64,000 bases of DNA from the NCBI RefSeq assembly GCF_003334815.1, contig NZ_QOWO01000015.1; one strand, 5' to 3'. This document shows positions 78 through 51,892 of this stretch, piece by piece (within the stretch, counting starts at the first letter, position 1; every line of letters begins with the position of its first letter). The notes below the pieces were generated by a model. It was not told the DNA's origin, did not search any database, and saw nothing but the letters and a program-made list of their open reading frames with translations. Position numbers and translations under genes: made by a program. The DNA is from Escherichia coli. GTDB taxonomy: Bacteria; Pseudomonadota; Gammaproteobacteria; Enterobacterales; Enterobacteriaceae.

Positions 78-421
78 GTGCCTGGCACACGCGTTTGATG
101 GAAGACGGCGTTCAGGCAATGCGCGATTATCTTGCCGGACTGGATATCGCTTCGCCAGAGCATCAGGTTCTGATGAACGTAACAGCAAAAAGCGAGGTCG
201 CTCCGTCAATTATCAAAGAAAATCTCTCATTACACTTAACTCATACGGTGAAATGGACTGAATCTCTCGATACATTTCTGAATATGCCAACCCCGGTAGC
301 TTTCCTTGAAATAAGTAATAAGCCCTATTTGGGGAATATGTTAAATGATTTTGCTGGCGTGGATCAGCAACGAGTTATGCATTGTCGTAAAGCATTTAGT
401 GATGCAAAGGTATTCAAATGA
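62..421 (+). pseudogene. ymdE: ymdE: acyltransferase-like C-terminal fragment, 5' part displaced by the IS3 insertion
   Basis: 119-aa ORF with no proper ATG (TTG inside the IS3 end); translation resembles the C-terminal part of malonyl-CoA:ACP transacylase-like proteins; stop overlaps ycdU start. Confidence 0.55.
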
Positions 422-1404
422 TTCCTGATTATTTAACTTTTATTCGCTTTCAGGATAAACGAAATCTGATATACATTTATGCTATTGGACTTATTCTGAT
501 AGGCTTTTATTGGAAGAATGCAGGGTTTACTTTTCCATCAGAGGATATTGGTGTAGTTAGTGGGATTCTGGCTCTGGTGCTGTATAATTTTATTTTTGAT
601 CTCAAGGCGTACTGGGCTTATAAATGCGTCACGAAGAATATCGATTTTTCGTGGTTTAAGAAAAAGCAGAACCACAAAATAGAATTATTTCTTACACAAC
701 CTCTGGTGGCAGGATTTCTGTCGTTAATCATGTTGAGTGCAATGAGTTGGGGGCTATACCAGCTTCTACCCTCGTTATATGCGCTGTTCCTGATTTCGTT
801 ACTTGGGCCGTTGGTCATCTTTCTGCTGTTTCGGATGATCCGCACCAGTTATGTCAAGCAGGTCGCTATTTCAGTAGCGAAAAAAGTAAAATATAAAAGT
901 CTGACTCGCTATGTGCTGCTTTCGGTGTGCATCTCAACGGTTGTTAACCTGCTTACTATCAGCCCGTTGCGTAACAGTGATTCTTTTGTGACAGAGGGGC
1001 AGTGGTTAACGTTTAAATCGATAATTGCATTGCTCATTCTTTGTGGCGTAGTGTTGGCGATTAATCTGTTTTTTCTGCGCTTCTCCAAGCGGTACGCTTT
1101 TCTGGGCAGGCTTTTTTTGCAGGAAATCGATCTGTTTTTCTCCAGTGAAAATGCGTTGTCGACCTTTTTTGCCAAGCCGCTTTGGCTTCGGTTATTCATA
1201 TTGCTGGTTATTGAAGTGATGTGGATTACGCTGGTGTCGGTATTGGCAACGCTTGTAGAATGGCGGATTTGGTTTGAAGCCTATTTTTTACTCTGCTATG
1301 TACCGTGCTTAATTTACTATTTTTTCTATTGTCGATTCCTCTGGCATAACGATTTTATGATGGCATGTGACATGTATTTCCGTTGGGGGCATTTTAATAA
1401 GTGA
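418..1404 (+). CDS. ycdU: Inner membrane protein of unknown function YcdU (328 aa), AT-rich, multiple hydrophobic segments
   Basis: 987-bp ORF; hydrophobic translation; ATGA overlap with ymdE stop. Confidence 0.85.
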
Positions 1405-1536
1405 GGAAGTGATAGGAAGTGACCAGATAATACATATATGTTCTGTACTCTCTTGCGCATTTTGATTGTTGACTGAGTAACCAGACAGTTGATGTGCACG
1501 ATTTCCCCTCGCCCTAACAGACGTGGGCGGGGGCAC

Positions 1537-2156
1537 CCGGTGTGTGCAATATACGAAAAAAAAGCCCGTACTTTCGTACGAGCTCTTCTTTAAATATGGC
1601 GGTGAGGGGGGGATTGACTCGCTTCGCTCGCCCTGCGGGCAGCCCGCTCACTGCGTTCACGGTCTGTCCAACTGGCTGTCGCCAGTTGTCGAACCCCGGT
1701 CGGGGCTTCTCATCCCCCCGGTGTGTGCAATATACGAAAAAAAAGCCCGTACTTTCGTACGAGCTCTTCTTTAAATATGGCGGTGAGGGGGGGATTGACT
1801 CGCTTCGCTCGCCCTGCGGGCAGCCCGCTCACTGCGTTCACGGTCTGTCCAACTGGCTGTCGCCAGTTGTCGAACCCCGGTCGGGGCTTCTCATCCCCCC
1901 GGTGTGTGCAATATACGAAAAAAAAGCCCGTACTTTCGTACGAGCTCTTCTTTAAATATGGCGGTGAGGGGGGGATTGACTCGCTTCGCTCGCCCTGCGG
2001 GCAGCCCGCTCACTGCGTTCACGGTCTGTCCAACTGGCTGTCGCCAGTTGTCGAACCCCGGTCGGGGCTTCTCATCCCCCCGGTGTGTGCAATATACGAA
2101 AAAAAAGCCCGTACTTTCGTACGAGCTCTTCTTTAAATATGGCGGTGAGGGGGGGA
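1537..2156. repeat. Tandem direct repeat array, 181-bp unit x about 3.4 copies, apparently identical copies, ending in the 3' end of serX
   Basis: Identical ORF translations restart at 1542, 1723, 1904 and 2085 (period 181); each unit contains tggcggtgaggggggatt (a copy of the tRNA-Ser 3' end) and the hairpin gcccgtactttcgtacgagc with an A/T run. Confidence 0.9.
2096..2139 (-). terminator. Rho-independent terminator of serX (hairpin plus T-run on the minus strand); the same hairpin recurs in each 181-bp repeat unit
   Basis: Minus strand reads gagctcgtacgaaagtacgggc followed by tttttttt immediately 3' of the tRNA. Confidence 0.6.
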
Positions 2157-2227
2157 TTCGAACCCCCGATACGTTGCCGTATACACACTTTCCAGGCGTG
2201 CTCCTTCAGCCACTCGGACACCTCACC
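2140..2227 (-). tRNA. serX: tRNA-Ser (anticodon GGA), 88 nt with long variable arm
   Basis: Reverse complement GGTGAGGTGTCCGAGTGGCTGAAGGAGCACGCCTGGAAAGTGTGTATACGGCAACGTATCGGGGGTTCGAATCCCCC...CACCGCCA; T-loop GGTTCGAATCC, CCA end, GGA anticodon. Confidence 0.95.
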
Positions 2228-2421
2228 AAATTGTCGTTCCTGTCTTGCTGGAACGGGCGCTAATTTAGGGAAATCATGACCTGAGGTCAACAAACTTTTT
2301 GAAAAAATCGCGCGTTTATTCAAACTTCAATCAATGTGTGGTTTTAATAAGCGAAATCTGCTTTTTTTGCCACCGACCACGGATTTGTTATGCTGGTGGC
2401 CTTTGTAGATCATAATGATAA

Positions 2422-7771: not shown

Positions 7772-8525
7772 GATGAAACCCCGCTTTTTTTATTGATCGC
7801 ACACCTGACAGCTGCCTCTAAAATAGAAGCACCAGAAGTACTGACAGATGTTGCACTGCTGTGTGTAGTAATAAATCAGCCCTAAATGGGTAAAATATAA
7901 AACTAATGGATTACATCTGATTTCAATCTAGCCATTACAAATCTTAAATCAAGTGTTAAACATGTAACTAAATGTAACTCGTTATATTAAAATGTTAACT
8001 TTAAGGTTTTATTAAGTTTAGAAATGATAGAAAAGTTGTACATTTGGTTTTTATTGCACAATTTTAAAAAATCATACAAATGGTGATAACTTACTAATAA
8101 TGCATATAAAAAATATTTCGGTGTAGTCCTTTCGTCATGTAAAACGTTCTTGTTTTTTCTCCACACCTCCGTGGACAATTTTTTACTGCAAAAAGACGAG
8201 GTTTGTCACGGCTTGTGCGCAAGACATATCGCAGCAATCAGCGACGGGCAAGAAGAATGACTGTCTGGTGCTTTTTGATAGCGGAAAACGGAGATTTAAA
8301 AGAAAACAAAATATTTTTTTGCGTAGATAACAGCGTATTTACGTGGGTTTTAATACTTTGGTATGAACTAAAAAAGAAAAATACAACGCGCGGGTGAGTT
8401 ATTAAAAATATTTCCGCAGACATACTTTCCATCGTAACGCAGCGTTAACAAAATACAGGTTGCGTTAACAACCAAGTTGAAATGATTTAATTTCTTAAAT
8501 GTACGACCAGGTCCAGGGTGACAAC
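7772..8525. promoter_or_regulatory. Divergent csgD/csgB intergenic control region (long, AT-rich; contains the csgDEFG and csgBAC promoters and the csgD 5' UTR)
   Basis: 754-bp non-coding AT-rich gap between divergent csgD and csgB; known from the literature as a multi-regulator hub. Confidence 0.8.
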
Positions 8526-17991: not shown

Positions 17992-18090
17992 GCCTGATGC
18001 GCTACGCTTATCAGGCCTACATCGTTCCTGCAATTTATTGATTTTGCAAGACTTTGTGGGTCGGATAAGGCGTTCACGCCGCATCCGGCA
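17992..18090. repeat. BIME/RIP-type element: two REP palindromes flanking a central motif
   Basis: gcctgatgcgctacgcttatcaggcctac ... caatttattgattttgcaag ... ggtcggataaggcgttcacgccgcatccggca. Confidence 0.8.
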
Positions 18091-27183: not shown

Positions 27184-27234
27184 TAATCTCTATGCTCCGG
27201 CTGAAGGGATGTTTTTGCCGGACACAAAGGATAA

Positions 27235-48943: not shown

Positions 48944-49304
48944 CGTAACTTACTCATTATTCTTACATTGACGACTAAGCTGCGGGCAAAGTAACGCCTT
49001 TCCGGGTGTGAACCGATGGCCTCGTGTCTAGTCGCGTCGCCAACCTCACGGTTATCGTCAGCTCAAAGAGGCGCAGAGTGTCGGTTGCCCGTTTTTCATG
49101 CGGAAAAACAGCGCAATTATCAAAGAAACAGACTGGGTATTACTCTCCAGAAATATTTCCATCTACCGGTAAGGACTGCAACCCGCAGCCCGCTAACTGC
49201 CTGAAAGATCAATACGTCTTACGCCATTGCTGCGTGGATGATCGGTCGGGCAAAATGGGTTATTCCGTAAAATTTCTTGTTTTAACAAGGATGGACACGG
49301 AAAC
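48944..49304 (-). promoter_or_regulatory. Long rne 5' untranslated leader (autoregulatory)
   Basis: Non-coding region upstream of the rne ATG; extent taken from the known 361-nt leader, not determined from the sequence. Confidence 0.55.
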
Positions 49305-50586: not shown

Positions 50587-51172
50587 CTATCCCATCAGCG
50601 GGTTTTTCCCTTCCCGACGTAACATCTGACACAGCGCGATTAGCGGTAAACCAACCAGCGTGTTAGGATCACGCCCCTCTAAACGCTCAAACAGCGTAAT
50701 GCCAAATCCTTCACTCTTAAAGCTACCCGCGCAGTGCAGGGGATGCTCTTTACGCACGTAATTATCAATCTCCGCCTCGCTCAGGTGACGGAAATGGACG
50801 TCAAAAGGCTCCACTTCTGTTTGCAGATGCCCATTCGCCGAATTAAACAACGCCAGTCCAGTAATAGAAGGTGACGATATTGCCGCTGGCTTTGCGTAAT
50901 TGCAGACGGGCATTTTCTTCCGTTAACGGTTTACCGGTGATTTCGCCATCAAGAACACATACCTGGTCTGAACCAATAATTAAATGATCCGGATAACGTG
51001 ACGCCAGAGATTGCGCTTTTTCTTGTGCCAGTCGAAGCACCAACTGTCGCGGTGATTCGTCGCTGCGTGGGGTTTCGTCGACCTCTGGTGCTGCACATTC
51101 AAAAGAGATTTGTAGTTTTTCCAGAAGAGCGCGACGCCATGGCGAGGTGGAGGCTAAAATAAGTTTAGGCAT
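50587..51172 (-). pseudogene. yceF: Maf-family nucleotide pyrophosphatase yceF interrupted by an apparent +1 frameshift (586 bp instead of 585)
   Basis: Two overlapping minus-strand ORFs (50843-51211 and 50587-50913) in different frames together span one Maf-like protein; the frame switches at ttctattactgg near 50861-50866. Confidence 0.75.
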
Positions 51173-51179
51173 ATTTTTT

Positions 51180-51330
51180 TCCATCAGATATAGCGTATTG
51201 ATGATAGCCATTTTAAACTATGCGCTTCGTTTTGCAGGTTGATGTTTGTTATCAGCACTGAACGAAAATAAAGCAGTAACCCGCAATGTGTGCGAATTAT
51301 TGGCAAAAGGCAACCACAGGCTGCCTTTTT
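51180..51330 (+). ncRNA. sraB: Candidate SraB small RNA in the yceF-yceD intergenic region; boundaries approximate
   Basis: 198-bp non-coding gap; terminator-like aggctgcctttttc at about 51315-51330; identity rests on the known location of sraB, not on a structure I could verify. Confidence 0.3.
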
Positions 51331-51332
51331 CT

Positions 51333-51892
<560 letters not shown>

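Follow-up and report, generated by a model that had tools for sequence, protein, structure and literature searches.

The stretch of Escherichia coli DNA analysed here (the window; 64,000 nucleotides of contig NZ_QOWO01000015.1) starts with the end of an IS3 element and a malonyltransferase fragment, according to its ORFs and the RefSeq annotation. The locus of interest surrounds the tRNA-Ser(GGA) gene serX, with ycdU on one side and ghrA on the other. Tandem Repeats Finder detected only one tandem array within the first 6 kb of the window, at positions 1536-2158. The array has a period of 181 bp and comprises 3.4 copies arranged head-to-tail, with 100% matches, no indels, and a score of 1246. 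As serX is encoded by the minus strand, the array is located downstream (3') of it. A script comparison indicated that the three full units are identical letter for letter and that the partial distal fourth unit is the same over 61 nt, after which it diverges. The features of the locus are listed below; the units are labelled tRNA-linked repeats (TLRs) after their very probable identity, which is discussed in the following section.

418..1404, plus strand: ycdU, convergent with serX; outer boundary of the locus
1536..1596, minus strand: fourth unit, truncated; trailer, hairpin and U8 run (about 1556-1591), and spacer extending to the first Gs of the predicted helix P1
1597..1777, minus strand: TLR unit 3 (distal full unit); RtT core at 1597-1733, predicted terminator hairpin at about 1737-1772
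1778..1958, minus strand: TLR unit 2, identical to unit 1; RtT core at 1778-1914, predicted terminator hairpin at about 1918-1953
1959..2139, minus strand: TLR unit 1 (proximal); Tandem Repeats Finder; Rfam RF00391, 46.3 bits; fold z = -5.14
Parts of unit 1, minus strand: serX trailer hairpin and U8 run at about 2099-2134; spacer; RtT core at 1959-2095; tRNA-end copy at 1959-1977
2140..2227, minus strand: serX, tRNA-Ser(GGA) (ARAGORN; Rfam tRNA, 53.8 bits)
2140-2158, minus strand: last 19 nt of serX, the template of the repeat 3' end (sequence identity)
1597..1610, 1778-1791, 1959-1972, and 2140-2153, plus strand: copies of TGGCGGTGAGGGGG, the 14-bp att core
2262..2290, minus strand: candidate serX promoter TTGACC-17-TAAATT (consensus match only)

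On the tRNA-sense strand, each full unit consists of the serX trailer (a 16-bp hairpin and a U8 run), a short spacer, a core of about 105 nt, and the closing sequence AATCCCCCCCTCACCGCCA, which equals the last 19 nt of serX (19/19 nt in each of the three units). The hairpin and the U8 run directly follow serX and each tRNA-end copy and are the same every time. The 14-mer TGGCGGTGAGGGGG occurs four times in the window (at 1597, 1778, 1959, and 2140), whereas none was expected from 100 shuffles. Beyond the truncated fourth unit, unrelated DNA begins on the ycdU side, and the hairpins of the array are placed between the convergent genes ycdU and serX. The match at 2262..2290 is the sole consensus promoter match placed to transcribe serX and, via read-through, the array.

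The initial annotation of this DNA described a 181-bp period with perfect copies, and a copy of the tRNA 3' end followed by a hairpin and a T-run in each unit. Both descriptions are confirmed by Tandem Repeats Finder and the script comparison, the copy being the 19-nt end of serX in every unit. All of its factual details hold except one: tcgaaccccggtcgggg, which was taken for a second tRNA-3'-like segment, is a hairpin within the RtT core, namely P2 (GAAGCCCCGACCGGGGTTC on the sense strand).

The perfect identity of the units is a strain-specific feature. When comparing the window with the MG1655 reference, three differences can be noted over the first 3,575 nt, and two of them fall in the distal unit. 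This distal (third) unit of MG1655 has mismatches to the window at window positions 1693 and 1733, whereas all units are identical in the window (three units) and in C600 (four units).

The three identical ORF translations that had also been pointed out are present, but they are by-products of the repeat. It is extremely improbable that the repeats encode a protein, either from the plus-strand ORFs of 137 aa or as a small basic Tpr-like peptide from the minus strand. Identical 137-aa ORFs are indeed found on the plus strand at 1542-1955 and 1723-2136, and the serX units have the conserved GATGAGAA motif in which the ATG of tpr is located at the tyrT locus. However, 181 is not divisible by 3, so the long ORFs read consecutive units in changing frames; NCBIfam gave no match to these ORFs, and this place is free of annotation in the MG1655 reference. 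A protamine-like Tpr ORF of about 29 codons starting from the GATGAGAA ATG was not found in the serX units, only the first residues being shared: the equivalent frame has 18 codons in the serX unit versus 29 in tyrT. The substitutions between units are compensatory in the predicted RNA helices and not codon-periodic.

Relation to known repeat families

The Rfam family RF00391 (RtT RNA) matches the minus strand three times, at 1597-1733, 1778-1914, and 1959-2095. With 46.3 bits, each full unit exceeds the gathering score of 45, and model positions 1-130 are fully covered; the margin is small, since near-identical sister units linked to serW score 41.6 bits. RefSeq/PGAP labels the identical locus in another strain as "RtT sRNA" three times, and does so four times in a derivative of K-12 C600.

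According to the account of Rudd (1999) given in PMC8144298, K-12 contains 22 TLRs in ten loci, with one to five per locus. [quoted passage not shown] Only one functional claim exists for the family: rtT was said to have a role in the stringent response, and this was later retracted (as stated in PMC8144298). The strain table of the same paper gives the deletion delta(rsX1-4) as 1096182-1096779 in old MG1655 coordinates. With a shift of +777, this interval corresponds to window positions 1534-2131 and coincides with the array; the old-to-current offset of 777 bp was checked against the tyrT coordinates of PMC8144298 and the MG1655 record.

The array lies on the same strand as serX and directly 3' of it, its units end in a 19-nt copy of the tRNA end, and they have an RtT score. 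Additionally, their core and P1-P6 layout are common with the tyrT repeats, and the catalogue has an entry, rsX1-4, for this place. All this points with high probability to a tandem TLR set, the rsX1-4 repeats of the K-12 catalogue, belonging to the Rfam family RtT. The element is already known: it was catalogued in 1999, is represented in Rfam, and is annotated by the NCBI pipeline. As a discovery, the array is therefore of little weight, its tyrT relatives having been known since 1978.

The array was not recognised as a catalogued element in the initial annotation. The MG1655 reference record has no annotation between ycdU (b1029) and serX (b1032), and this gap is probably why the array looks unexplained in the raw sequence. 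Such a blank in the K-12 annotation leads to repeated "rediscovery" of the element by naive scans. Moreover, Ser-type units are at the detection threshold of Rfam, and arrays go unannotated; an example is strain 98205, in which this applies to seven of the eight serW units.

The 178-bp repeats of tyrT and tyrV (rtT and rtV1-3; RttR RNA) were reportedly described by Egan and Landy in 1978. Like the serX units, they are tandem and directly 3' of a tRNA gene, their period being 178 bp versus 181 bp at serX, and the serX units can be aligned directly with the MG1655 tyrT/tyrV units. Units of both kinds end in 19 nt of their own tRNA's 3' end and share the motifs GGATGAGAAGC..CGAC..GGTTCGAC..CCCGNAGGGCGAG.. 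and a predicted six-helix architecture. Helix P1 is formed by a G-run and a C-run in the serX units and by GGGAAGG/CCTTCCC in the tyrT units; P4 of the serX units is longer than that of tyrT and different from it, and the Rfam RtT score is 46 bits for serX units versus 133-137 bits for tyrT units. A predicted intrinsic terminator follows every CCA in the serX units, whereas the tyrT units have none. Transcription termination at tyrT is Rho-dependent. We know of no RNA product shown for the serX units. For the tyrT repeat, an RNA product has been shown, according to work cited in PMC3318445.

The rrA, rrB, and rrF elements are TLRs located between the terminators T1 and T2 of rrnA, rrnB, and rrnD (Stenum et al. 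2021, PMC8144298). They share with the serX units a 3' module, which consists of a hairpin of the AACGTTGC..GCAACG type, CCCGNAGGG, a further hairpin, and the end of the upstream gene; in rrA, rrB, and rrF, the module closes with 18 nt of the 3' end of this gene. The modules of both groups are placed between two terminator hairpins, so that their expression needs the first terminator to be read through. Unlike at serX, the upstream gene is a 5S rRNA gene, and the elements are single copies that do not form arrays. GGA motifs are present in the rrA, rrB, and rrF elements, which bind both Hfq and CsrA in vitro, while the tRNA-linked members of the family are predicted non-binders of CsrA (PMC8144298).

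A further likeness concerns 3'ETS-leuZ and other sRNAs of tRNA spacers, which are by-products of tRNA operon transcripts released via tRNA processing (PMC8144298), as the serX modules might be. The sequence of 3'ETS-leuZ is, however, unrelated to the serX units, and it has neither a copy of a tRNA 3' end nor tandem amplification. 3'ETS-leuZ serves as an sRNA sponge, whereas rsX has no known function.

Predicted RNA fold and its distribution

When one unit is folded on the sense strand, a terminator hairpin and a multi-helix junction closed by pairing of a G-run with a C-run are predicted. The z-score of the fold is -5.14 for the sense strand versus -2.66 for the antisense strand. The sequence comparison supports a fold of six helices (P1-P6), in which P1 would close a junction of five hairpins (P2-P6). 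The 5' G-run would pair in P1 with the tRNA-end copy, that is, with the T-stem/acceptor 3' strand of the tRNA. The acceptor 3' strand and CCA are predicted to be unpaired, and ...UCACCGCCA would constitute a tRNA-like single-stranded 3' tail.

The fold was tested on 94 distinct units from many genera, and the Ser-type (n = 37) and Tyr-type (n = 57) units were aligned separately. RNAalifold applied to a mixed MAFFT alignment of Ser and Tyr units recovered only P1, P2, and P5, the other helices being missed because the variable hairpins misalign; for this reason, the hand-drawn structure was tested on the separate alignments. In the resulting counts, which rest on MAFFT alignments and a hand-drawn structure and whose statistics ignore kinship, 97.6% of cells pair in the Ser-type alignment, with 8 two-sided pair changes against 1-2 in slid controls, and 92.1% of cells pair in the Tyr-type alignment, with 15 two-sided pair changes against 3-9. 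The covariation score was reached by none of 500 shuffles for either type.

Within one tRNA type, helices P1, P2, and P5 are almost constant, but they change in a concerted way from one type to another. Ser units have GGGGGGA/UCCCCCC as P1, Tyr units have GGGAAGGA/UCCUUCCC, and a Tyr variant has GGAGAAGG/CCUUCUCC; P2 is CCC/GGG in Ser units versus CUU/AAG in Tyr units. The support for these three helices comes mainly from the comparison between types, as they are nearly invariant among Ser-type units. Recurrent G-U pairs favour the tRNA-sense strand. As judged from the alignments, the tRNA-end copy is an integral strand of P1, a conserved and covarying predicted RNA helix. The comparison shows a predicted fold under purifying selection, with a wide phylogenetic spread (Enterobacterales, Pseudoalteromonas, and possibly Xanthomonas).

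The distribution of the units was surveyed in one genome per bacterial species using the pattern TGAGAANCNNCGACNNNGGTTCGA, which represents the Ser/Tyr-type 5' module, and at least 120 stretches were found. The restriction to Ser and Tyr types results from this pattern and is not a property of the TLR family. The survey yielded at least 185 Ser/Tyr-type cores, and 165 of the matches listed are behind tRNA-Ser(GGA), tRNA-Tyr(GUA), or tRNA-Ser(GCU). The nearest upstream tRNA on the same strand is Ser(GGA) for 81 of the matches listed, Tyr(GUA) for 75, and, in Pseudoalteromonas, Ser(GCU) for nine. For another 20 of them, no upstream tRNA was found; these are mostly at contig ends, and three resemble chance matches.

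Among the matches listed, the distance from the tRNA to the first core is always 62-72 nt, and the units frequently form arrays of one to five, with periods of about 165-185 bp. In most of these matches, the last 19 nt of the unit have 0-1 mismatches to the 3' end of the adjoining tRNA, and the unit ends track tRNA sequence variants, such as ...CCCGCCACCA and ...CCTTCTCCCACCACCA. The units listed belong to many genera of Enterobacterales and to Pseudoalteromonas; a possible Xanthomonas member is represented by a weak sX4 match only. In K-12, the 3' half of the module recurs in the TLRs of rrnB T1-T2, the lysT operon, and the arg operon, where it is joined to the 3' end of the respective gene. 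Homologous units are found behind 5S rRNA genes, tyrT/tyrV, and the lys/val and arg tRNA operons, and each of them has the end of its own upstream gene.

Island integration and copy number at serX

The 14-mer TGGCGGTGAGGGGG, present in every unit, is the att core for the P4-family integrases of OI-43, OI-48, and SRL. It constitutes the direct repeat of OI-43/OI-48 and SRL-type islands, and OI-48 of O157:H7, which is flanked by it, excises by site-specific recombination (PMC3064760). The serX gene is a true island integration hotspot. In the initial annotation, the duplicated tRNA ends were read as a signature of integration; the tRNA-end copies would then be att scars and the 181-bp unit a remnant of a decayed integrative element. 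This agrees with the presence in every unit of the core that flanks OI-43, OI-48, and SRL-PAI and supports excision (PMC3064760), and with the integrase-bearing islands that adjoin TGGCGGTGAGGGGG in O157:H7 and SCZE5. The DNA past the array (ycdU, ymdE fragment, and IS3) also differs between strains. The variability of this flank, suspected earlier, is evident in a B2-type strain, where the ycdU segment is absent, dgcT is located next to serX, and a truncated core adjoins the dgcT stop codon.

The repeats contain the integrase core, but they do not bracket foreign DNA. The att repeats of OI-43, OI-48, and SRL-PAI have the same 14 bp as every serX unit; however, they are products of site-specific recombination and enclose tens of kb that include a P4-family integrase, whereas the repeats of the serX array flank 162 bp, consisting of a conserved non-coding RNA module and a trailer. 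Neither an integrase nor an island ORF was detected inside or between the units (ORFs, NCBIfam), and a blastn search (distant mode) with one unit against 50,697 phage records gave no match. The copied stretch is 19 nt and not 14, and it corresponds to one strand of the covarying predicted helix. The integration reading also leaves aside that TLR members each carry the end of their own upstream gene, behind tyrT/tyrV, the lys/val and arg operons, and 5S rRNA genes, and that Ser/Tyr-type units occur across many genera of Enterobacterales and in Pseudoalteromonas.

The island junctions are also informative. In O157:H7, the order is ycdU, a 0.4-copy remnant, the 14-mer, and a tyrosine integrase, with zero full units. 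SCZE5 has an island of about 62 kb that begins immediately next to serX, with all units on its far side, in the order integrase, 14-mer, one full unit, IS3-truncated unit, and dgcT; the array is thus about 62 kb away from the serX promoter. The integration site of the SCZE5 island was therefore serX itself, and an array that was already present was displaced. The island junction of both genomes inspected is located at serX, the units being simply displaced, and units on both sides of one island were not found in these two island-bearing genomes. The cases of O157:H7, SCZE5, and the B2-type strain together show that the array is older than the island insertions examined and independent of them. 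An att-scar origin is largely refuted by the family homology, the 19-nt copy, the covariation, and the island junctions, and we regard it as very improbable. A phage or satellite origin of the unit was dropped, with 0 matches among the 50,697 phage records.

The reading as a TLR set is also in line with the copy number data. The 104-nt Ser-type core was found in 3,366 of the 5,426 complete E. coli genomes, at 8,055 places in total, and these 3,366 genomes have from 1 to 11 copies each (median 2). At the serX locus with the same flanks, independent complete genomes have 0.4, 1.4, 2.4, 3.4, or 4.4 copies, and derivatives of K-12 contain three or four units. A urinary isolate has an 8.4-copy array with a 179-bp period behind serW. 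The earlier suggestion of a copy-number-variable locus is thereby confirmed by cross-genome comparison, with 0.4-4.4 copies at serX.

Perfect repeats that exceed the short-read length are often mis-assembled, and the difference between three and four copies among K-12 derivatives could partly be an assembly error. Nevertheless, the probability that the array itself is an artefact, with the repeat collapsed or expanded by the assembler, is negligible: thousands of complete genomes share the architecture and flanks, their copy numbers being discrete, and the Sanger-era MG1655 reference has the array, with two private differences anchoring its distal unit.

The array may have arisen from one module behind serX, which would give two direct copies of the tRNA end and trailer ("19 nt + trailer", 76 bp). 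Between these 76-bp copies, and later between whole 181-bp units, unequal homologous exchange or replication slippage could then take place. As far as can be inferred from the pattern, such events would expand, contract, and homogenise the array. Both the perfect identity of the units and the differences in copy number between strains would be explained in this way.

Transcription, termination, and possible role

By comparison with tyrT and rrA/rrB/rrF, transcription from the serX promoter would occasionally read through the first hairpin into the array. The tRNA-end copy with its identical trailer might then allow the tRNA 3'-processing machinery to free each module as a discrete RNA, again by analogy. 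The rrA, rrB, and rrF elements are expressed through T1 read-through; for rrB, RNase E cleavage followed by exonucleolytic trimming has been proposed, and the repeated 3' end is thought to direct RNase E (PMC8144298). The processing of the tyrT transcript, as described in PMC3318445, is consistent with the model of release after read-through. The earlier idea of a multimerised terminator or of transcribed tRNA-like fragments is compatible with what is seen in other TLRs.

The serX hairpin with its U8 run looks efficient, and read-through into the array may consequently be low. If arrays orphaned far from the serX promoter are persistent, this would argue against a strict need for co-transcription. 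A search for an internal promoter in the unit revealed only weak -10-like sequences (TATATT/CATRTT) and no -35 element, and the spacer is not conserved across genera.

The 16-bp hairpin with the U8 run on the minus strand, after serX and after each unit, is a predicted intrinsic terminator. On the plus strand, terminators were called at four sites versus 1.6 expected, and the hairpin behind tRNA-Ser(GGA) is kept with compensatory changes in many genera. It can be supposed that the array was selected as a multimerised bidirectional terminator or insulator between ycdU and serX, the rest of the unit being a passenger. The A-tract and U8 run of each hairpin, which make it terminator-like on both strands, and the covariation of the hairpin across genera fit this explanation. 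However, the 0.4-copy state, with just one hairpin, is common among strains, so multimerisation is dispensable, and Tyr-type units keep the core but lack the hairpin. The conserved six-helix core and its covariation would also be left unexplained. We consider this explanation quite improbable.

Returning to the TLR reading, one may ask what the units do. A viable strain deleted for all 22 TLRs is listed in PMC8144298, and the family is therefore dispensable in the laboratory. TLRs are still orphans, conserved structured RNAs without a known function, and the covariation argues for their functional study. A candidate role, which we put forward as unlikely though worth stating, is that the serX-type TLR is neither junk nor only a terminator but a selected structured non-coding RNA, with a closing helix imitating the T-stem and acceptor strand of the tRNA and with a free CCA tail; its dosage would be set via rapid copy-number change, and it would act by its tRNA-like end or as an att decoy. 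If so, the RNA may titrate a factor recognising uncharged tRNA 3' ends or a tRNA-processing nuclease; alternatively, the spare att cores would divert island integrases. In practical terms, a hypervariable perfect repeat located beside an island hotspot is a likely source of assembly errors and a possible typing marker.

Sequence variation and hairpins of the array

Over the first 3,575 nt of the window, three positions (1693, 1733, and 2416) do not match the MG1655 reference. Two of these differences are located inside the distal repeat unit; thus, the "perfect" identity of the array depends on the strain. Across units and species of various Enterobacterales (comparison stretches L012, L052, L096, L102, and L103), the tRNA-end copy has a C-run of C6 to about C11, and the length of the matching G-run of P1 varies as well. 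Unlike these runs, the tRNA gene itself does not exhibit such length variation. The homopolymer of the tRNA-end copy and P1 appears to be prone to slippage.

Each unit hairpin lies between an A-tract and a U/T-tract:

1556-1591, both strands, unit hairpin scored as a terminator
1737-1772, both strands, unit hairpin scored as a terminator
1918-1953, both strands, unit hairpin scored as a terminator
2099-2134, both strands, unit hairpin scored as a terminator

Scoring as terminators in either orientation, these hairpins could also end the convergent ycdU transcript.

Variable DNA and islands at serX

In E. coli strain uk_P46212, which lacks the ycdU segment, a truncated TLR core directly follows the dgcT stop codon, and the hairpin and serX come next (L005 3999-4102). 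About 50 nt of P1–P3 are retained in this core, with substitutions, and its position against the dgcT stop indicates that the boundary of the variable segment falls inside a repeat unit. The genome of strain SCZE5 contains an island of ~62 kb at serX, which carries type I restriction–modification, DarTG, and other defence-like genes (L131 2740-3107, L133 38804-39041). This island separates serX from two TLR units that are now located beside the integrase, and one of them is truncated by IS3.

In the O157:H7 strain ECP19-798 (L129, L004), ycdU stands last in a long gene cluster for ketoacyl synthases, ACP, a FabZ-like protein, a malonyltransferase, and an ABC transporter. K-12-like genomes retain from this cluster just ycdU and a fragment of the malonyltransferase gene (ymdE), located beside IS3, which looks like the remnant of an IS3-associated deletion.

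Annotation of Ser-type repeats

The serW-clpA interval of E. coli strain 98205 (L130 2172-3666) contains a Ser-type array of 8.4 copies with a period of 179 bp behind serW. Seven of its eight units score 41.6 bits, below the Rfam gathering score of 45, and for this reason RefSeq annotates a single "RtT sRNA" there. Therefore, Ser-type TLRs are systematically under-annotated. As for MG1655, its reference record has no features between ycdU (b1029) and serX (b1032) (window 1405-2139 compared with L128, NC_000913.3 1096830-1097564); the locus tags b1030 and b1031 are missing, as are the catalogued TLR names rsX1-4.

In K-12, serW shares its trailer and hairpin with serX but lacks a TLR core. In place of the core, the MG1655 serW-clpA interval contains the following match:

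L127 1254-1281, isolated CRISPR-DR4 repeat, 50 bits

The only entry at K-12 serW in the TLR catalogue, as reported in PMC8144298, is the rsW' remnant.

Distribution of the repeat family and other matches

In Pseudoalteromonas, tRNA-Ser(GCU) is followed by units that resemble TLRs and share their P2/P3 layout (L007, L044, L060, L094, L110, L115, and L120, from Pseudoalteromonas and relatives), and some of these units end in the 3' end of this tRNA. Thus, the TLR family extends past Enterobacterales. One weak Rfam match overlaps the array:

2070-2238, minus strand, sX4 (Xanthomonas sRNA), 34 bits against a gathering score of 70

The sX4 model apparently takes in the 3' end of a tRNA-Ser, the trailer, and the first part of a TLR-like GGGGGGUGAGA segment. 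The match hints that tRNA-Ser-linked repeats are also present in Xanthomonadales and expressed there.

The rrnB T1–T2 interval is itself a TLR (rrB), with the 5S 3' end at its end (L134 330-425). Many cloning vectors carry a copy of this interval.

Other Rfam matches in the window above the gathering score are ordinary E. coli features with no relation to the TLR array:

7827-7918, minus strand, ES056
18013-18055, minus strand, ES036
27184-27233, minus strand, PyrC leader
48968-49304, minus strand, rne 5' UTR
51166-51334, plus strand, SraB
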